Shown: positions 32,655 to 62,569, numbered from the stretch's first letter. The stretch is 64,000 bases of DNA from an uncultured SAR86 cluster bacterium (GCA_902627595.1 CACOJO010000001.1:117590-181589), one strand, 5' to 3'. Numbers and translations: made by a program. Notes: generated by a model from the letters alone, not told the origin.

Positions 32655-34187
<1,533 letters not shown>

Positions 34188-34264
34188 AACAAATTACACG
34201 ACTTTTATTGTGAGTGTCCGTTCGAATTACTTGTCTTACTATTTTCATAGGAAAATAAGTGATG

Positions 34265-34276
34265 TGTTCTTTTAAA
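34265..34276 (+). promoter_or_regulatory. boxA antitermination element (ITS)
   Basis: TGTTCTTTTAAA, identical to the leader copy. Confidence 0.7.
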
Positions 34277-34290
34277 GTATTGTTGATCCA

Positions 34291-34374
34291 GTAACTAAAT
34301 TTATTTAGTTACGACACTAATAATTAATGTTATCAATTATTAGTGCACCAAGTTTTAAGATAATTATCTTAAAA
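34291..34374. repeat. Three tandem AT-rich inverted repeats in the ITS
   Basis: GTAACTAAAT/ATTTAGTTAC (34291-34312), CACTAATAATT/AATTATTAGTG (34315-34345), palindrome TTTTAAGATAATTATCTTAAAA (34353-34374). Confidence 0.85.
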
Positions 34375-34437
34375 TGCTAATGGCAAATTTTGGCGCTTAT
34401 TATTCGAAAGACTTAACTTTATTAATTTAAAGTATTT

Positions 34438-37341
<2,904 letters not shown>

Positions 37342-37409
37342 AATACTTTATATTAATAAAGTTTTATAACGCCAAAATTAAAAGGATCTACAATACGAAA
37401 CTAGAATTC

Positions 37410-37526
37410 TGCCCGATGACATTAGCAAGTGTGTCCCACCTGACTCCATCCCGAACTCAGAAGTGAAACCACTTAGCGCCGATGGTAGTGTGGCTCGTCC
37501 ATGCGAGAGTAGGACATCGTCGGGCT
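37410..37526 (+). rRNA. rrf: 5S rRNA
   Basis: CCCACCTGACTCCATCCCGAACTCAGAAGTGAAAC, GCCGATGGTAGTG; terminal helix GCCCGATG/CGTCGGGC. Confidence 0.97.
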
Positions 37527-39609: not shown

Positions 39610-41361
39610 CTATTTCTCTTTAAATAAGTCGGTTAGTTGTTCTAACATAACATTTCCCAATTCCTCAGCTCTATGGATGGTCACAGCTTTTTTGTAATAT
39701 TTTGTAACATCATGACCTATTCCAATTGCAATTAATTCAAGTTCCGTTCTGTTTTCAATTTCTGAGATGACTTGTTTCAGATGATTATCAAGGTAACTAG
39801 TTGAGTTGGTTGACAGGGTACTGTCATCTACTGGAGCTCCATCTGAAATAACCATAAGAATTTTTCTTTGTTCCGGTCTTTTCATTAGTCTTGAAGAGGC
39901 CCATAGCAAAGCTTCGCCGTCGACATTTTCTTTTAACAAACCTTCTCTGAGCATTAAGCCAAGATTTTTCTTTGCTCTTCTCCACGCAAGATCTGCTGGT
40001 TTAAAAATAATATGTCTCAAATCATTTAACCTTCCTGGCGAGCTAGGCTTTCCGCACTCAACCCATAGTTTTCTGCTATCCCCGCCTTTCCAATGTTTTG
40101 TAGTGAAACCTAAAATTTCAGTTTTTATATTGCATTTGTCTAAGGTTGATCCAATTATATCTGCAGAAATGGCTGCTGTTGTCATCGATCGTCCTCTCAT
40201 TGACCCTGAACTATCTACTAACATGGTTAAGACAGTATCCTTAAAAGAAGTTTCTTTCTCAGTTTTAAAGCTTAGTGGAGTCAATGGATCAGTAATGATT
40301 TTATGTAACTTAGAGGAGTCTAAAATACCTTCCTCTTTATCAAATTCCCAAGACCGTCCTTGTTGAGCTAATAATAATCTTTGCAATCTGTTTGCCAATT
40401 TTGCTATGACGGATTTTGAAGGATCTATCAATTGATCCAGTCTATCCCTTAACCTTTTTAGTTCCTCTAGAGAACATAAGCTATCTGCATCAACTATTTC
40501 ATCAAAATCTCTGCAAAAAACTTTGTATTCTTGATTTTGATTTAATGCAATCAACTCTTCTAACTTAGATCTATTTTCTACCCAATCATCGGTGTCTTCT
40601 ACATCTCCATCCTCGATTTCAAAGTCTTCAATTTCTGTCTCACTTTCATTATCTGTTTCAGAAGCATCATTGTCGGGCTGTTCTTCTTGTTCTTGATCTG
40701 AAGAGCTGTCGTCTTCATCGTTATCATTATTTTCTTCTGTCTCCGACTTCGGCTCTTCTTGCTCTGGATGTTCAAATTCAAAACCTAATTTTTTAAATAA
40801 TGAAATTAAATATTCATTAAACTTTTCTTTATCATTGATATATTTATTTGCAAGCTTTAAATCAGCATTTACTTCAGAAAGGTTCTGACTCCAAGGTTTT
40901 AAAAAAACTTCTTCCAATTTATTATTTTTTTGATTTAAGAGAGTATTTTTTAAACTTATCTCTACAGCAAGTTTTAAAGCATCTTGTTTGTTCTCTATCG
41001 TTTGCTGAGATAAATTTTTTAAGAATAAAGTTCTCAGATTTTGCTTTATTCCTAAAAAGTCTCGCGAACCAAGTATTTCTGACCTAACTACTTCAAAATC
41101 TCTTAGGAGAAAATCCAATTCAGATATACCAGTACTTTTTAAAGGTTTTTCTAATAATTTATATTTTTGGAGAAGAGCTTGTTTGTCAGCATCTCCTCTA
41201 GAAAGTTGAATGGACTCGATGTTCTCTTGATGATTATGTCCAGGTTCAGCAATTTGTGGCAGATAATTAACGTCTAGTTGAAGGTCTTTATCTTTAGATA
41301 TTGCTCGACTAGAAGCGTTGATCACATCTTTGATGTTTTGTTCTGGAGATTTTTGACTCAA
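39610..41361 (-). CDS. cobT: CobT-like vWA protein
   Basis: RGDAD, acidic linker, [57 protein letters not shown]. Confidence 0.9.
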
Positions 41362-42344
41362 GCTTTATCTACTAAATTTATAATGGAGTCACTTGTTTCA
41401 GAGTCGAAACATCTTTGGAAGTATTCTGCAATTATTGATTTTTCCGTTTCGTCGCATTTATTTAAAAAGCTTAATTCAAAAGAGTTTCCAATATCATTAA
41501 AAATTGAATAATTTTCAGCCCAACTTATTACTGTTCTAGGGGACATTAAATTTGAAATGTCACCATTTTTGAAACCCTCTCTTGTAAGATTTGCAAGAGA
41601 AATCATTGCTTTTACCATGGATTGACCTTTTTTATTATTTAAATCTTTAACTTTTGAAAGAATAACTTTAAGCTCTAAGTCTTCAGTAAGATAATTTAGA
41701 GGAGAAACGATATGCCATCTATCCATTTGTCCTTGATTAATTTGTTGGGTTCCATGATATAAACCAGTACTGTCGCCTAATCCTACGGTATTTGCTGTTG
41801 CAAAAAGTCTAAAGTAAGGATGCGGTGTCAAAACCCTATTTTGATCTAATAAAGTTAATTTACCCTCTACCTCTAATACTCTCTGTATGACAAACATTAC
41901 ATCGGGTCTTCCAGCGTCATATTCATCAAATACTAGGGCTACAGGATTTTGGATAGCCCAAGGCAATATACCTTCTTGAAACTTTGTTATTTGCTTACTA
42001 TCTTCGATGGCAATAACATCTTTACCTAACAAATCAATTCTGCTGATGTGACTATCTAAATTGATTCTTATACATGGCCAATTCAATCTAGCCGCAACTT
42101 GTTCAATATGTGTCGATTTTCCTGAGCCATGAAGTCCCTGTACCATAACTCTTCTGTTATTTTGAAAGCCCGCTAGAATTGATAGAGTGGTGGCTTTATC
42201 AAAACAATAGTCTGAGTCTAATTTAGGAACATATTCATTGTTTGTTGAAAAGGATTTTACTTTTAAATCAGAGTCAATTTCGAAGGTATCCTTAACCTTA
42301 ACATCGGCATCAGGTTCTTGAATTGAAAAATTATCTAGATTCAT
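41358..42344 (-). CDS. cobS: CobS-like AAA+ ATPase
   Basis: [54 protein letters not shown]. Confidence 0.92.
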
Positions 42345-55771: not shown

Positions 55772-57144
55772 TAAAAGTTAAGTTGCAGGTCATAATCTAT
55801 TTTAGACAAAATTTCTTTGAAATAATTTTTTATTTCCAACAAATCTTTTTCTGTATTACCTTCAAACCTTAAAACTAAATTTGGAGATGTATTTGAAGCT
55901 CTAACAAGACCCCAAGAATTTTTACTTTCCAGTCTAATTCCATCGATATCAATTAGCTTGTAATTATTATCTTTAATTAAGGGTTTAAGTTCATCAATAA
56001 TCTTAAATTTCTGTTGTTCCGTGACTTTTAGGTTTATTTCAGGTGTGGAGTAGCTGAATGGATAAGATTCAAAAATTTCACTAGAGGTTAATTTTTTTTT
56101 AGATAAAATTTCTATAAGTCTAAGAGCTGAATATATGGCATCATCAAAGCCATACCAATCATCATTAAAAAATATGTGGCCACTCATTTCTCCACCCAGA
56201 AGAGCATTAGTTTCTATAATTTTTGATTTTATATAGGAGTGACCAGTTCTAGAGAGCACAGGAGTTCCATTAAAGTCTCTTATTTTTTTTTCTAAAATTG
56301 TTGAGCACTTTACGTCATAAACAATATTTCCTTTAGAATTTTTCTTTAAAACATCTTCGGCTAAAAGAATCATGTACAAATCTGGGAAAACTATTTTTCC
56401 TTTGTTATCAACCAAGCCCACTCTGTCTCCATCACCATCAAGTGCAATTCCTAAATCTGAATTTGTTTCAAGAACTTTATTTTGAAGATCTTCCAAGTTT
56501 TTAGGATCGCTGGGGTCGGGATGATGATTTGGAAAATTACCATCAACTTTTGTATGCAACTCAATAAGATCTATTCCTGCGACTCTAAAGGCTTTAGGTG
56601 CAATAACTCCTCCAACTCCATTGCCACAATCCAAACAAACTTTTATCTTCGAGCCTATGTTAATTTTATTTTTTATTTTTCTTAAATAATCCTCTTTAAC
56701 ATCAAAGGAAGAAATATTGCCCGCACCGTTTAGATAATTTTCTTCTTCTATAATTAGTTTTATTTTTTTGATTTCTTCACTTGTCATTGATTTTTTATCT
56801 ATGACAATTTTTAAACCATTATAATTTTTTGGATTGTGACTGCCGGTGAGTATGACTCCATCGGATACATTTGTTTCAAAAGTAGAAAAATAAAGAAGCG
56901 GTGTGGGCACTTCTCCAATATCTATTACATCACATCCTGAAGACATGACTCCTTTTTGAAACTGCTTTAAAAGCCTAGGCCCAGAAATTCTTCCATCTCT
57001 TGCAGTAACTAATGAATTTCTACCTTCAGAAAGGAGATAAGAACCTAAAGCTTTACCAATATAGAATATACCTTCTTCAGTAAGCTCTTCGTCAACTATT
57101 CCTCGAATATCATATGCTCGGAAAATTTGAGAATTAACTTTCAT
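55771..57144 (-). CDS. algC: Phosphomannomutase/phosphoglucomutase
   Basis: FRAYDIRG, TGSHNP, DGDGDR, GEMSGH, RASNT. Confidence 0.94.
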   Translation of the reverse strand: MKVNSQIFRAYDIRGIVDEELTEEGIFYIGKALGSYLLSEGRNSLVTARDGRISGPRLLKQFQKGVMSSGCDVIDIGEVPTPLLYFSTFETNVSDGVILTGSHNPKNYNGLKIVIDKKSMTSEEIKKIKLIIEEENYLNGAGNISSFDVKEDYLRKIKNKINIGSKIKVCLDCGNGVGGVIAPKAFRVAGIDLIELHTKVDGNFPNHHPDPSDPKNLEDLQNKVLETNSDLGIALDGDGDRVGLVDNKGKIVFPDLYMILLAEDVLKKNSKGNIVYDVKCSTILEKKIRDFNGTPVLSRTGHSYIKSKIIETNALLGGEMSGHIFFNDDWYGFDDAIYSALRLIEILSKKKLTSSEIFESYPFSYSTPEINLKVTEQQKFKIIDELKPLIKDNNYKLIDIDGIRLESKNSWGLVRASNTSPNLVLRFEGNTEKDLLEIKNYFKEILSKIDYDLQLNF

Positions 57145-58114: not shown

Positions 58115-59362
58115 TTGAAAAAACTTAAGATTGCTTTTCTAAGCTATAGAAGCAAGCCGTTTTCGGGGGGTCAGGGTATTTATGTAAAATATTTATCCAA
58201 GGCTCTAAATGATTTGGGGCATGATGTAGATGTCTTTTCAGGACCTCCTTATCCTGATTTAGATCCTGAAATAAAGTTAATTAAAATTCCAAGTTTAGGT
58301 TTGTACGAAAAAAAAAGTAAGTTTTATGATGTAAACCTATCTCAATTGCTAAACCCAATAAATTTATTTGAATGGATAAGTGTAAATTCTGGCGGTTTTC
58401 CAGAACCTTATACTTTTGGTAAAAGAATTAAAAAAATTCTAAAACAAAATTTAAATGCTTATGACGTGATTCACGACAATCAAAGCCTTTCATACGAGTT
58501 GCTCTTTTTTCAGAAACAAAAACCATTAGTTACTACAATTCATCATCCAATTTCTAAAGATCTTACTTATCAACTTCAAAGTACAGATGATTTCTTCTTA
58601 AAGTTGTTAATGAGAAGATGGCATTCTTTTCTGGTAATGCAGAAGTTTGTAGCAAAAAGACTCAATAAAATTGTGGTTCCATCATGGTCTTCAATAGAAG
58701 ATATTTCTAATGAATTCAAGGTTGATAAAGGCAAAATGGAAAGGGTTATGAACGGTATAGATCTAAACATTTTTTATCCAGATCCTAAAATAAAAAAAGT
58801 ACCATACAGACTTGTTACTGTTGCAAGCGCAGATGTTCCTCTCAAAGGATTAGATTATCTTCTAGAAGCTCTGTCTGATTTAGCCAAAGTTTATCCTGAT
58901 ATTTCATTATCGATCATAGGCGAGCAAAAGAAAGGAGGGCATACCGAAAGACTCATAAAAAAACTTTGCCTTGAAGATCGAGTGAGCTTTTTTTCAAATA
59001 TAACGCGGAAAGAATTAAGAAAAACATATTGTGAAGCCGAAATAGCAATAATACCTTCCTTGTATGAAGGTTTTGGATTTGCTGCAATTGAAGCAATGGC
59101 TTGCGGAGTGCCTTTGATTTCAACATCTGGCGGAGCTTTACCTGAGGTTATCAAAGATGTAGGAATTATAATTCCACCAAAAAATTCTAAAGAAATTTAT
59201 AATTCAATAGATCTGCTTTTGTCTTCTTCGGGGCTAGCTAGCCAATTGGCCTTAAAAGCATCTGAGAGAGTTAAATCAAAATTTTCTTGGAAAGTAATTG
59301 CAAAAAAATTGGAAAAGGTCTATTTGAATGAAATAGAAATTTATAAGAATGCAAACAATTGA
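58115..59362 (+). CDS. GT4 glycosyltransferase, ManT-like (putative alpha-1,4-mannosyltransferase)
   Basis: LSYRSKPFSGGQGIYV, SGPPYP, GGFPEPYTF, HDNQSL, TIHHPI, ASADVPLKG, PSLYEGF...EAMACG, GGALPEV: matches the actinobacterial family clustered with MeT1 (from memory). Confidence 0.8.
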   Translation: MKKLKIAFLSYRSKPFSGGQGIYVKYLSKALNDLGHDVDVFSGPPYPDLDPEIKLIKIPSLGLYEKKSKFYDVNLSQLLNPINLFEWISVNSGGFPEPYTFGKRIKKILKQNLNAYDVIHDNQSLSYELLFFQKQKPLVTTIHHPISKDLTYQLQSTDDFFLKLLMRRWHSFLVMQKFVAKRLNKIVVPSWSSIEDISNEFKVDKGKMERVMNGIDLNIFYPDPKIKKVPYRLVTVASADVPLKGLDYLLEALSDLAKVYPDISLSIIGEQKKGGHTERLIKKLCLEDRVSFFSNITRKELRKTYCEAEIAIIPSLYEGFGFAAIEAMACGVPLISTSGGALPEVIKDVGIIIPPKNSKEIYNSIDLLLSSSGLASQLALKASERVKSKFSWKVIAKKLEKVYLNEIEIYKNANN

Positions 59363-60053
59363 CATTAAATATATAAATCCAAAAAAAGGATCTAAAGTTC
59401 TAGATCTTGGGTGCGGCGAAGGCAGACATTGTTTTGGGGCTTACATGCATCAGGATTTGGATGTTTTTGGCTTTGATATGAGCCTAGATGACGTATCTAA
59501 GGCCAAAATGAATTTCAAAGAATTCGATGAGTCATCAACAAATAAAAGTTGTTCATTTGGCGTTACTGATGGAAGAAAGCTCCCCTTCAAAAATAATTCT
59601 TTTGACTATGTTATCTGCTCAGAAGTTTTAGAACATATTATTGAATTTGAAGAAGTTATTGAAGAAATCAATAGGATATTAAAGCCTGGGGGAATTTTTG
59701 CTGCTAGTGTCCCTAAATTTTTTCCTGAATGGATTTGTTGGAAATTAAGCAAAGCATACCAAGAGATGCCGGGCGGACATGTCAGAATTTTTAAGTATCA
59801 CAAATTTAAGAAGGCAATTGAACAAAGAGGTTTTATTTTTAAAAAAAGACATTGGAATCATGCTTTGCATTCTCCTTATTGGTGGTTGCAATGCTTATTT
59901 TGGGATACTAAAGAAGACTCCTGGATTATAAGAAAATATCATGACTTTTTAGTTTGGGATATGATGAAGAAACCTTTGTTGACAAAGGTGTTAGAATTTC
60001 TTCTTCAACCAGTTATCGCCAAAAGTGTCGTTGCATATTTCAAAAAAAAATAG
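59349..60053 (+). CDS. Class I SAM-dependent methyltransferase (putative sugar 3-O-methyltransferase)
   Basis: LDLGCGEGRH, SEVLEH, ICWKLSKAY...GGHVRI, HALHSPYWWL, LVWDMM; overlaps both neighbours. Confidence 0.8.
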   Translation: MQTIDIKYINPKKGSKVLDLGCGEGRHCFGAYMHQDLDVFGFDMSLDDVSKAKMNFKEFDESSTNKSCSFGVTDGRKLPFKNNSFDYVICSEVLEHIIEFEEVIEEINRILKPGGIFAASVPKFFPEWICWKLSKAYQEMPGGHVRIFKYHKFKKAIEQRGFIFKKRHWNHALHSPYWWLQCLFWDTKEDSWIIRKYHDFLVWDMMKKPLLTKVLEFLLQPVIAKSVVAYFKKK

Positions 60054-61050
60054 AACCAAAAGTATTTTCGATAAACAGATTTATCTGAACTTTGCTAAAT
60101 ATATTCTGTCTTGTCAGGACTCAGATGGGGGAATTAGATGGGAGCCTGACTCAAAACTTGATCCATGGGATCACATTGAAGCTGCTATGGGCTTGGATGT
60201 TTTAGGCTTTGAAAAAGAGTCAAAAAAAGCATATGAATGGTTAAAACTCCATCAAGAAAATGACGGATCCTGGTTTTCTTCATATCATTCACAAGAAAAA
60301 AATCTTCTAAAAGAAACCAACTTTTCTTCCTATATTGCAGTTGGAATGTGGCATCATTATTTGAATTTTTCAGATATAAATTTTCTAGAAAATTTTTGGC
60401 CAGTTTTAGACTTGGCGATTGAGTTCACTCTATCCGCTCAAACTGAACATGGAGATTTTTTTTGGGCTAAAGAAAAAAATAGTTGGCTGGATGACTCATT
60501 AAAAACTGGGTGTTCGTCAATTTATATGAGTCTGTTTTTTTATAAGAAAATTGCCAAAGAACTTAATCTTCAGGATAGAGTTTCAGAGTATCAAATTAAA
60601 AATTTAAGAGAGTGTTTGTTAAGTAACCCGAATAGATTTGATAGAAATTGGGAAAGTAAATCAAGATACAGTATGGATTGGTACTATCCAATATTGACTG
60701 GAGTTTTAAACAAACCTGAATCTATCGAAATACTTAGACGTAAATGGGATAAATTTGTTGTGGAAGGATTAGGCTGTAAGTGCGTTGAAGAAGAGCCTTG
60801 GGTAACTGCTGCAGAGTCATCTGAATTAGCAATTGCGTTATCTAGACTTGGTTTAAAGAAAGAAGCGGAAGAAGTCTTGCAAAATACTTTTAACTTAATT
60901 GACGAGGACGGCCTATTGTGGACTGGTTACGTTTTTAAAGACAAAAAATTTTGGCCAATAGAAAAACCAAGCTGGACGATGGGAGCTGCGATACTAGCAG
61001 GTAATTCTATAAACAAATTCAGCCCATCTCATAATTTTTTTAATTTTTAA
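60025..61050 (+). CDS. (alpha/alpha)6-barrel protein, putative glycoside hydrolase (MmpH-like; commonly auto-annotated as prenyltransferase)
   Basis: QDSDGGIRW, DPWDHIEAAMGL, QENDGSW, ETNFSSYIAVGMWHHYL, RYSMDWYYPIL, PWVTAAESSE, WTGY, WPIE. Confidence 0.7.
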   Translation: MSLHISKKNRTKSIFDKQIYLNFAKYILSCQDSDGGIRWEPDSKLDPWDHIEAAMGLDVLGFEKESKKAYEWLKLHQENDGSWFSSYHSQEKNLLKETNFSSYIAVGMWHHYLNFSDINFLENFWPVLDLAIEFTLSAQTEHGDFFWAKEKNSWLDDSLKTGCSSIYMSLFFYKKIAKELNLQDRVSEYQIKNLRECLLSNPNRFDRNWESKSRYSMDWYYPILTGVLNKPESIEILRRKWDKFVVEGLGCKCVEEEPWVTAAESSELAIALSRLGLKKEAEEVLQNTFNLIDEDGLLWTGYVFKDKKFWPIEKPSWTMGAAILAGNSINKFSPSHNFFNF

Positions 61051-61639
61051 TTTTTTTTAGAATTCCCAAGCTTTCGTATATTCCTAAATCTTCAAATTCG
61101 TCTGAATTTTTTGCTAGAGAATATATTTCAAATGGGGGTCGACCTCCGTCTTTAGGATCAGGAAAAACATCATGGATGACAAGCAAACCATCTCTTTTTA
61201 TTTTATTTTTCCATGAATTGTAATCCTTTAAAGCCGCATCTAAAGTATGTCCGCCATCTATAAATAACAAGCCTATCTTTTCCGAAAATGTTTTAGAGGC
61301 ATTATGAGAATTATCAATTATGGGAATCACGAACTTTCCAACTTTAGAGGATAATAGATTTTCTATAAGTTCGGGAAGGGTGTTGAATTTTTTAATTCTT
61401 AAGTCAAACAAATCTTCATCATGATATTCCTCTCCGAGCTGATGTTCTTCTGATCCTGTATGGTGATCTATTGTATAAACCAAACCATTTACTTTTTCTG
61501 CTACAGAGGCAAAATTTAACGCTGACTTGCCGCAGTAAGTTCCAATTTCTAAAACAGATCCTAAGTGGTGGACATTTAGAAATAATTCTTGTAATTTTTC
61601 AGCTTCTTTCTTACTGAGAAAGCCTTTTATATCTTTCAC
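61040..61639 (-). CDS. meT1: MeT1-like 1-O-methyltransferase (Methyltransf_24)
   Basis: EIGTYCGKS, TIDHHTGSEEHQLGEEYHD, FIDGGHT, VIHDVFPDPKDGG: near-identical to motifs I recall for mycobacterial MeT1. Confidence 0.8.
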   Translation of the reverse strand: MKDIKGFLSKKEAEKLQELFLNVHHLGSVLEIGTYCGKSALNFASVAEKVNGLVYTIDHHTGSEEHQLGEEYHDEDLFDLRIKKFNTLPELIENLLSSKVGKFVIPIIDNSHNASKTFSEKIGLLFIDGGHTLDAALKDYNSWKNKIKRDGLLVIHDVFPDPKDGGRPPFEIYSLAKNSDEFEDLGIYESLGILKKIKN

Positions 61640-61654
61640 TAAATTAGTTTATCA

Positions 61655-62569
61655 ATGCAATTAATAAAAAGAAAAGAAGTTAACATTTCAAAAGATACGT
61701 TCTCTTATCTTCATCTTGAGAATGAAATCAAAGGTAAAAATATCTTTTTCTTTCATGCAACTGGTTTTAATGCGGAAACCTATTCTCCTTTTTTTCTTAA
61801 ATTAGATGAATTATTAGCTCACGAATACTCAATATATGCTCTTGACCAAAGGGGCCATGGATTGTCTAGAGCTTCTGCTATTCCTTCTGATTTAACATCC
61901 TGGAGAACGTATTTCTCAGATGCAAAAGAATTTGTAGATAGGTTTAAAACTTCAGAAAATATTGTGATGGGACATTCTATGGGAGCTGTAGTGGCATCAA
62001 AAATATCTTTTGATTTTGAAAATAGTATAAAAAAAAGTATTTTAATCGATCCTGTTCTTCAACCTCAGAGCCTCAGTTTTCAGCTTCCTTTTTTTAATAT
62101 TTCCAATAAATTATTTATAAGGTTAATGAGTTATTTAAAAAAAAATCGAGCTACAGAAATGATCAATAATGCGAAAAAAAGACGCTCTATATTCACTGAT
62201 AAGGATGATATTTTTAATCATTACACTGGAAGAGGCGCATTTAAAAATTGGCCAGAAGATTTTTTAAGGGCTTATATTAATGGAGGTACAAAAGTAATAA
62301 ATAACCAAACTAATTTAAGTTGTGTTCCAGAGTGGGAGGCAAAAACTTTCGCAGTTTCTTATGTAGCGAGAACTAAATTTATTTCAAAAATAAAAAAATC
62401 AACTTATGTACCTTACGCTTCAGAGGGATCTACTTTTTCATTAGATGTGAGAGAGCGGCTTAAAAGAAATCCTAATTATATTTTTGAGGAAATAAATGGA
62501 AGTCACTTTTTTCCAATGGAAAAAAAAGATTTAATATGTGAAAAGATTTCAACTTTCATAAGTTCATAA
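61655..62569 (+). CDS. Alpha/beta hydrolase (serine esterase/lipase-like)
   Basis: FHATGFN, ALDQRGHG, GHSMG nucleophile elbow, GSHFFPME catalytic His. Confidence 0.85.
   Translation: MQLIKRKEVNISKDTFSYLHLENEIKGKNIFFFHATGFNAETYSPFFLKLDELLAHEYSIYALDQRGHGLSRASAIPSDLTSWRTYFSDAKEFVDRFKTSENIVMGHSMGAVVASKISFDFENSIKKSILIDPVLQPQSLSFQLPFFNISNKLFIRLMSYLKKNRATEMINNAKKRRSIFTDKDDIFNHYTGRGAFKNWPEDFLRAYINGGTKVINNQTNLSCVPEWEAKTFAVSYVARTKFISKIKKSTYVPYASEGSTFSLDVRERLKRNPNYIFEEINGSHFFPMEKKDLICEKISTFISS

Follow-up and report, generated by a model that had tools for sequence, protein, structure and literature searches.

Can the methylmannose polysaccharide (MMP) pathway, which the literature treats as a mycobacterial or actinobacterial speciality of debated physiological role (PMC9883506), be at work in a small-genome marine gammaproteobacterium? 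The question is raised by four tightly packed genes at positions 58115-61639 of a stretch of 64,000 nucleotides, hereafter the window, deposited under an uncultured SAR86 cluster bacterium (GCA_902627595.1 CACOJO010000001.1:117590-181589). An initial annotation of this DNA had described them as overlapping genes for a family GT4 glycosyltransferase, a class I methyltransferase, a Trp-rich (α/α)6 protein and a second methyltransferase, and had likened them to the mycobacterial MMP cluster. The answer favored here, with a probability of about three in four, is that they constitute a vertically inherited MMP-type pathway making a cytoplasmic O-methylated α-1,4-mannan, a product deduced from the genes. 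Comparison of the encoded proteins supports their reading as the orthologous set of mycobacterial ManT, the putative 3-O-methyltransferase (pMeT3), MmpH and MeT1; what appears to be new is the presence of this known module in another phylum, where it belongs to the core genes of an entire order.

In the mycobacteria M. hassiacum and M. smegmatis, MmpH cuts MMP internally and the resulting fragments serve MeT1 as substrates and ManT, a GDP-mannose-using enzyme, as primers, while pMeT3 is the presumed source of the 3-O-methyl groups (PMC9883506). The hydrolase is needed for MMP synthesis in mycobacteria, a ΔmmpH strain of M. smegmatis being devoid of MMP and growing more slowly at 15°C (PMC9883506). 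Sequestration of fatty acyl-CoA has been proposed for both MMP and methylglucose lipopolysaccharide (MGLP) (PMC9883506).

Identity of the four genes

Open reading frames (ORFs) were found exactly where the initial annotation had placed them, to which it can be added that gene 4 is encoded on the minus strand and runs toward gene 3 (Table 1). The genes overlap by 14 nt (genes 1/2), 29 nt (genes 2/3) and 11 nt (genes 3/4, across the convergent stops), so that no intergenic gap is left and the whole set fits in 3.5 kb. In none of the four proteins does any 19-residue window reach a Kyte-Doolittle value of 1.6, and all four are therefore read as soluble, cytoplasmic enzymes.

Each protein was compared with all PDB sequences. 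The product of gene 1 matches the Pfam models Glycos_transf_1 (8.8e-32) and Glyco_transf_4 (3.4e-20), and its top PDB match over residues 4-404 is 7QSG (E 5.5e-86; runner-up 2.3e-25). For gene 3, Pfam gives only a weak α-α toroid match (0.0084) and NCBIfam a weak match to 'oligosaccharide amylase' (1.7e-08), while the top PDB match over residues 24-339 is 7QSJ (E 2.5e-69; runner-up 0.0094); tryptophan makes up 15 of its 341 residues (4.4%). 7QSG and 7QSJ are ManT and MmpH, respectively, both from M. hassiacum (Maranha 2023, PMC9883506). The product of gene 4 matches Pfam Methyltransf_24 (5.1e-20) and no NCBIfam model, and the motifs EIGTYCGKS, DHHTGSEEHQ, FIDGGHT and HDVFPDPKDGG, singled out in the initial annotation, are all present in its translation. 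Its top PDB match over residues 4-196 is the group 6G7D/6G80/6H40 (E 2.7e-46; runner-up 4.2e-07), and a count by hand gives about 80 identities over 193 aligned positions. We take 6G7D to be MeT1, the PDB title reading just 'Methyltransferase domain protein'. As sequence matches, those of genes 1, 3 and 4 (1e-46 to 1e-86) are far past chance. The Pfam and PDB matches thus agree with the four families first proposed, and the best matches 7QSG, 7QSJ and 6G7D, together with the reciprocal comparisons given below, bear out the correspondence with the mycobacterial cluster.

The residues on which catalysis depends point the same way. In ManT, mutation of K240, E313 or E321 lowers or abolishes activity (PMC9883506), and the equivalents of K240, E313, G314, F315 and E321 are unchanged in all 92 aligned homologues, the window protein included. 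In MmpH from M. hassiacum, E262 and D47/D50 are catalytic, and W49, F102, T163, M215, Y219 and E265 line the subsite (PMC9883506); all nine can be found in the window protein, as E264, D46 and D49 and as W48, F100, T161, M217, Y221 and E267, respectively. Across 105 aligned homologues seven of these nine positions are invariant, those of D50 and F102 being the variable ones. The D50 position, one of two candidate catalytic acids (D49 in the window), is occupied by Asn in all 11 alphaproteobacterial sequences, from Parvibaculum, Rhodobiaceae and relatives, and the F102 position varies in some sequences of the window's own order and in others, with His in six own-order sequences. Among 75 MeT1 sequences, conservation reaches 98% or more at D58, H59, H60, G62, S63, E64, E65, Q67, G69, F126, D128, G129, H131, H156 and D157. 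MmpH and MeT1 have one match each in the window assembly.

The (α/α)6 fold of MmpH, together with its conserved catalytic base, recurs in the GH15 glucoamylases and GH125 exo-mannosidases of clan GH-L (PMC9883506). Gene 3 differs from the former in being of the MmpH type, and the Pfam GH15 model finds no match in any of five own-order genomes tested. A comparative paper on SAR86 lists 'glucoamylases (sga1)' in the majority of the order (PMC11582366), a label that may refer to the MmpH homologue. Public names for close MmpH homologues (3341 clusters at E <= 1e-20) include 'hypothetical protein' and 'prenyltransferase', and these annotations can now be corrected.

Gene 2 is the member for which structure databases help least. 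Its product matches Methyltransf_31/11 (1.4e-23) as well as Methyltransf_23/25, and no specific relative can be found among all PDB sequences, the best reaching 53 bits. Its assignment is made through Streptomyces genes and through position. In 78 of 80 loci of other lineages (described below), it matches the gene lying between ManT and MmpH at 41-51% identity and 181-281 bits; of the two remaining loci, one is a short contig with a 50-residue fragment (66% identity) and one has no match. Over 103 sequences of this family, 39 columns are at least 98% conserved, including G21-x-G23 as part of DLGCGxGRH and E92/E95/H96 in SEVLEH. In the reverse direction, the window assembly was searched by tblastn with the cluster genes of four genomes, two of Streptomyces and one each of Parvibaculum and Azotimanducaceae (HTCC2089). 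This search returned the window genes on top, with ManT, MmpH and MeT1 as sole matches. For MeT3, the window gene reached 177-226 bits over all query genomes, the runner-up no more than 50; with the Streptomyces queries it scored 177-178 bits against at most 47 for the next, so that gene 2 and the Streptomyces genes are reciprocal best matches. Gene 2 is accordingly predicted to be the orthologue of the putative MMP 3-O-methyltransferase.

Distribution and inheritance of the cluster

The initial annotation knew of MMP from Actinobacteria only, which holds for the literature searched and fails for the genomes. At the level of titles and abstracts, no report of an MMP cluster outside Actinobacteria was found, an earlier mention in the MeT1 2019 paper or in supplements being possible; the Maranha 2023 survey is actinobacterial and the word 'proteobacteria' is absent from its text (PMC9883506). 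The same literature search gave nothing on methylmannose together with SAR86, nor on methyl sugars in marine dissolved organic matter.

In genomes, the module extends beyond the window's order to other Gamma- and Alphaproteobacteria, Thermodesulfobacteriota and many Streptomyces. When a single genome of each species was scanned with a pattern, at least 584 MmpH relatives were confirmed. The best 80 of these were searched by tblastn; 56 of them belong to Streptomyces, Embleya or Actinacidiphila, the other 24 to Proteobacteria or Thermodesulfobacteriota. Of these 80 loci, 77 have ManT and 79 have the second methyltransferase, always in the order ManT-MeT3-MmpH, the misses falling on contigs of 2.4-3.8 kb. 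MeT1 lies within the examined stretch in 53 of the 80 loci. In 11 proteobacterial loci it is convergent with MmpH and abuts it, as in the window, whereas in Actinobacteria it stands 2.4-5.7 kb away with unrelated genes between. Of the 27 loci with no MeT1 nearby, five were checked over the whole genome and in all five MeT1 was found elsewhere. Beside the module, 17 ORFs were compared across Azotimanducaceae, Pseudomonadales, Parvibaculum and Streptomyces loci, and among them no shared accessory gene was found. Within the class, an even sample of 400 genomes gave 10 positives, four of them from the window's own order, which leaves 6 of 396 outside it.

Two described systems offer the closest comparison. 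With the mycobacterial MMP cluster (meT1, mmpH, pmeT3, manT; PMC9883506), the window set shares the same four families, the compact four-gene unit and the catalytic and subsite residues; it differs in its host, a small-genome marine gammaproteobacterium, in a MeT1 gene that converges over the MmpH stop, in a ManT without the proposed guanine-contact Asp, and in an order from which ManC, the GDP-mannose pyrophosphorylase/isomerase, is mostly missing. With the Streptomyces cluster, it shares the ManT-MeT3-MmpH order and reciprocal best matches, all three genes being present in the Streptomyces/Embleya/Actinacidiphila loci wherever the contig allows; the distant MeT1 of those loci contrasts with the abutting one of the window's order. 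Streptomyces griseus reportedly makes acetylated MMP (PMC9883506, Fig. 1 legend), which ties the Streptomyces type of cluster to a product. The resemblance to mycobacterial MGLP, also a cytoplasmic polymethylated polysaccharide proposed to sequester acyl-CoA, is conceptual only, since the sugar, linkages and enzyme set differ (no search for MGLP genes was made).

Within the order, the cluster was followed through 41 genomes of four families and 12 genera (0.9-1.8 Mb). The same 38 genomes carry every one of the four proteins; among the 29 that are at least 90% complete, 28 do. MeT1 adjoins MmpH in 36 of the 38, lying 10 kb away in one and on a separate contig in another. The three negative genomes are assembly gaps rather than losses, because two of them also lack ilvE and the downstream hydrolase, while in the third the hydrolase is missing and ilvE occupies bases 6-926 of a contig that ends where the cluster would begin. 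In one genome of the window's own genus (G008:C1:23322-24330), the match to MmpH falls into two parts and contains in-frame stops (one TGA, one TAA), and MeT1 carries one TAA; this could be a decaying copy or an assembly error.

The position of the cluster is equally constant. Among 15 loci representing the 12 genera, ilvE adjoins ManT in 11 and the phosphomanno/glucomutase gene stands past ilvE in 12, the exceptions belonging to one family (f2). In the window, ManT follows the end of ilvE by 9 nt. The cluster has a G+C content of 0.32-0.35 against 0.28-0.34 for its flanks, which are housekeeping genes (PBP1A, argB, phosphomanno/glucomutase, ilvE, panB, panC), as is the remainder of the window apart from one rRNA operon; the contig is 247 kb long and includes that operon. 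A tree of concatenated ManT, MeT3 and MmpH was computed in a quick IQ-TREE run (LG+G4, SH-aLRT only) on 51 rows, namely all 16 from the order, all 21 other non-actinobacterial ones that had all three proteins, and one in four of the 55 actinobacterial ones (41 dropped). The order falls on one side of a branch with an SH-aLRT of 100, and there its members cluster by family. Actinobacteria, Alphaproteobacteria and the other Gammaproteobacteria are each set apart as a group of their own, and two Thermodesulfobacteriota or 'Delta' rows stand beside Actinobacteria. Given long branches, warnings of compositional heterogeneity and an unknown root, the claim drawn from this tree is limited to there being no sign of recent transfer. 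The view taken in the initial annotation, of genes as AT-rich as their neighbors, set among core genes and long resident with no mark of mobility, is upheld by composition, by the gene order and ilvE anchor shared over four families, and by a gene tree congruent with them. Together, these sequence features support a cluster that is long-resident, vertically inherited and not mobile.

The order itself is likely SAR86. The window assembly (1.14 Mb, 25 contigs, 84.7% complete) holds one rhodopsin gene and nine TonB-receptor matches in seven open frames, the sequencing runs associated with it bear the label 'marine metagenome', and genome sizes in the order are 0.9-1.3 Mb in family f1, 1.4-1.8 Mb in f2, 1.2-1.3 Mb in f3 and 0.9-1.1 Mb in f4. 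These features fit the published descriptions of SAR86/Magnimaribacterales, with four families, 1.05-1.66 Mb, 31-40% GC and a carbon metabolism in which β-oxidation is central (PMC3358033; PMC11582366). The sequence of the fluorescence in situ hybridization probe SAR86-1245, taken from a table in PMC8701031, has no match in the window at up to two mismatches and one at three, at the cognate 16S site 33892-33908. The term 'SAR86-like' used at the outset is hence consistent with the data, the three mismatches at the probe site being the part that does not agree.

Proposed function, sugar donor and alternatives

If the four enzymes act as their mycobacterial counterparts do, a pool of short O-methylated α-(1→4)-mannans would be kept in the cytoplasm by 'partially conservative replication', analogous to that of M. 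hassiacum and M. smegmatis. The MmpH homologue would cleave existing chains internally, the MeT1 homologue would methylate the new reducing-end 1-OH, the ManT homologue would lengthen the non-reducing end from nucleotide-mannose, and the second methyltransferase would O-methylate the added residues. From the enzymes we infer the product, the donor (GDP-mannose or another nucleoside diphosphate (NDP)-mannose) and the role alike; the preferred role would be that of a buffer for acyl-CoA or fatty acids, i.e., for hydrophobic chains, or of a low-temperature aid in a lipid-oxidizing heterotroph.

Several points weigh against this reading. Even in mycobacteria, the activity of pMeT3 is 'putative' (PMC9883506). 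A supply of GDP-mannose is putative at best: canonical ManC (TIGR01479) was not found in the window assembly, and a full-length copy is present in only seven of the 41 order genomes, four of them above the curated cut-off. As GlmU and GalU are missing from the window assembly as well, the absence of ManC there says little. To our knowledge, type I fatty-acid synthase, the proposed target of MMP in mycobacteria, is not expected in Proteobacteria, and the role may differ here. In ManT, contacts of L291 and D293 with guanine have been proposed from modelling (Maranha 2023, PMC9883506). The equivalents in the window are I296 and R298, and the D293 column holds D in all 55 Actinobacteria and in none of the 16 own-order sequences (R/F/H/E/K/N/Q). 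In view of the scarce ManC and the non-conserved D293, GDP-mannose is one candidate among the possible donors.

Other genes of the order bear on how a nucleotide-mannose might be made. The window assembly has two NTP_transferase genes, one MurU-like and one for a CBS-domain enzyme in the NeuC/NeuB sugar island at the contig end, and in the closed relative G017 the classified NTP_transferase enzymes are GalU, RmlA, MurU and GlmU only. A fusion of about 260 aa, combining a cytidylyltransferase-like domain (PF01467) with a phosphomannose isomerase (PMI) cupin (PF01050), is present in 25 of the 41 order genomes, one copy being an N-terminal part only and another being interrupted by stops. It occurs in none of the seven ManC genomes, and nine genomes (completeness 67-97%) have neither at the thresholds used; the PMI cupin domain, within ManC or fused to the cytidylyltransferase-like domain, is thus found in 32 of 41. 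In the Atlas, clusters with this architecture are mostly tailed-phage records. The fusion is a candidate for a non-canonical nucleotide-mannose route, and the phosphomanno/glucomutase encoded upstream could supply mannose-1-phosphate, synteny being high throughout the order genomes anyway.

The same observations feed the alternative that has to be taken most seriously, namely that like enzymology serves another chemistry: a methylated oligo- or polysaccharide built from another hexose or donor (e.g., an ADP-, CDP- or UDP-sugar), or short solute-like methylated oligosaccharides that are not lipid binders. The lack of ManC in the window assembly and most of the order, the confinement of the D293 equivalent to Actinobacteria and the short list of NTP_transferases in G017 all speak for it. 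It is nevertheless judged unlikely, since the mannose-subsite residues of MmpH are all kept in the window, the hydrophobic ones included, the sugar-side residues E313, G314 and F315 of ManT are invariant, the PMI cupin is widespread in the order and the phosphomanno/glucomutase gene is found two genes upstream at 12 of the 15 loci.

Synthesis of an envelope glycan, such as a methyl-capped O-antigen or capsule mannan, rather than a cytoplasmic polymer, would draw on comparable enzymes, GT4 enzymes and sugar methyltransferases being frequent in such loci. Some E. coli mannan O-antigens do end in methyl caps. This alternative is very improbable here: no transporter, polymerase, lipid-carrier or export gene was found in the cluster or its flanks, the four proteins have no predicted membrane or signal segment, and the three best PDB matches are cytoplasmic MMP enzymes, not O-antigen enzymes. 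Moreover, the neighbors of the locus are amino-acid and cofactor genes, and it does not vary within the order, in contrast to the sugar island that ends the contig, which is variable.

No more credit can be given to a catabolic module processing methylated mannans imported from seawater; a hydrolase is present and the order, if it is SAR86, has been described as a glycan and lipid scavenger (Dupont 2012, PMC3358033), but the other three enzymes are biosynthetic (one glycosyltransferase and two S-adenosylmethionine (SAM) methyltransferases), neither a transporter nor a periplasmic signal was seen, and the mycobacterial hydrolase is itself required for synthesis. Recent horizontal gain from Actinobacteria, or contamination during binning, is effectively refuted, the description of the system in Actinobacteria only and its patchiness in the class being outweighed by the matching G+C content of cluster and flanks on a long rRNA-bearing contig, the ilvE-adjacent position across genera, and a tree that tracks the order's families with Actinobacteria apart, identity of the window proteins to those of Streptomyces being 36-45%. 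These last three alternatives were rejected on G+C content, synteny, the tree, the absence of export genes and the biosynthetic enzyme content.

Meaning for the order and neighboring features

The complete module, retained in virtually all assembled genomes of an order of 0.9-1.8 Mb, which has shed much else, suggests a polymer that earns its keep. The order would offer the field a second, very different system for asking what polymethylated polysaccharides do. If it is SAR86, a cultured isolate exists and β-oxidation is central to its metabolism (PMC11582366), and the idea of an acyl-chain buffer becomes directly testable. A more far-reaching proposal, tentative and on present evidence doubtful, is that MMP may be a core and ancient lipid-handling device of this abundant order of ocean heterotrophs (if SAR86/Magnimaribacterales), buffering acyl-CoA and fatty acids for β-oxidation and fed by a NDP-mannose route through the PF01467/PMI fusion, possibly with a nucleotide other than GDP.

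Table 1. Positions of the cluster genes and of other features considered (window coordinates unless a locus or contig is named).
Feature	Position	Strand	Remarks
Gene 1, ManT orthologue	58115-59362	+	415 aa; GT4 (GT-B fold); predicted α-(1→4)-mannosyltransferase (chain elongation)
Gene 2, pMeT3 orthologue (predicted)	59349-60053	+	234 aa; class I SAM methyltransferase; conserved C-terminal extension
Gene 3, MmpH orthologue	60025-61050	+	341 aa; (α/α)6; predicted endo-α-(1→4)-mannosidase (polymer to primers)
Gene 4, MeT1 orthologue	61040-61639	-	199 aa; Methyltransf_24; predicted 1-O-methyltransferase (reducing-end cap)
Phosphoglucomutase/phosphomannomutase, PgmG-like	55774-57144	-	446 bits, below the 600-bit cut-off; two genes upstream of ManT in 12/15 loci
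α/β hydrolase	61655-62569	+	Hydrolase_4/Abhydrolase_6; weak match to intracellular short-chain polyhydroxyalkanoate depolymerase
rRNA operon, complete (16S, 23S, 5S)	32655-37525	+	16S at 32655-34188; shares contig with cluster
Nonulosonic-acid-type sugar island (L091)	G000:C1:243000-247240		window assembly; NeuC-like epimerase, NeuB-like synthase, formyltransferase, CBS-domain nucleotidyltransferase; cut by contig end
PF01467/PF01050 fusion, example in G011	L095:1489-2274	-	not found in window assembly
PF01467/PF01050 fusion, example in G017	L094:1280-2053	-	not found in window assembly

The α/β-hydrolase gene, which begins 15 nt past the start of the MeT1 gene, was considered as a fifth member of the module and rejected. 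Only in families f1 and f2 does it come after MeT1 (34-72% identity); it is absent from that place in f3 and f4, and it adjoins MeT1 in none of the 80 loci of other lineages. A promoter scan was uninformative, giving 14 promoter-like sites against 21.2 expected. Elsewhere in the window, a CobT-like and a CobS-like gene lie at 39613-42344 on the minus strand, with scores of 557 against 759 bits and 518 against 558 bits, respectively, both below the curated cut-offs.

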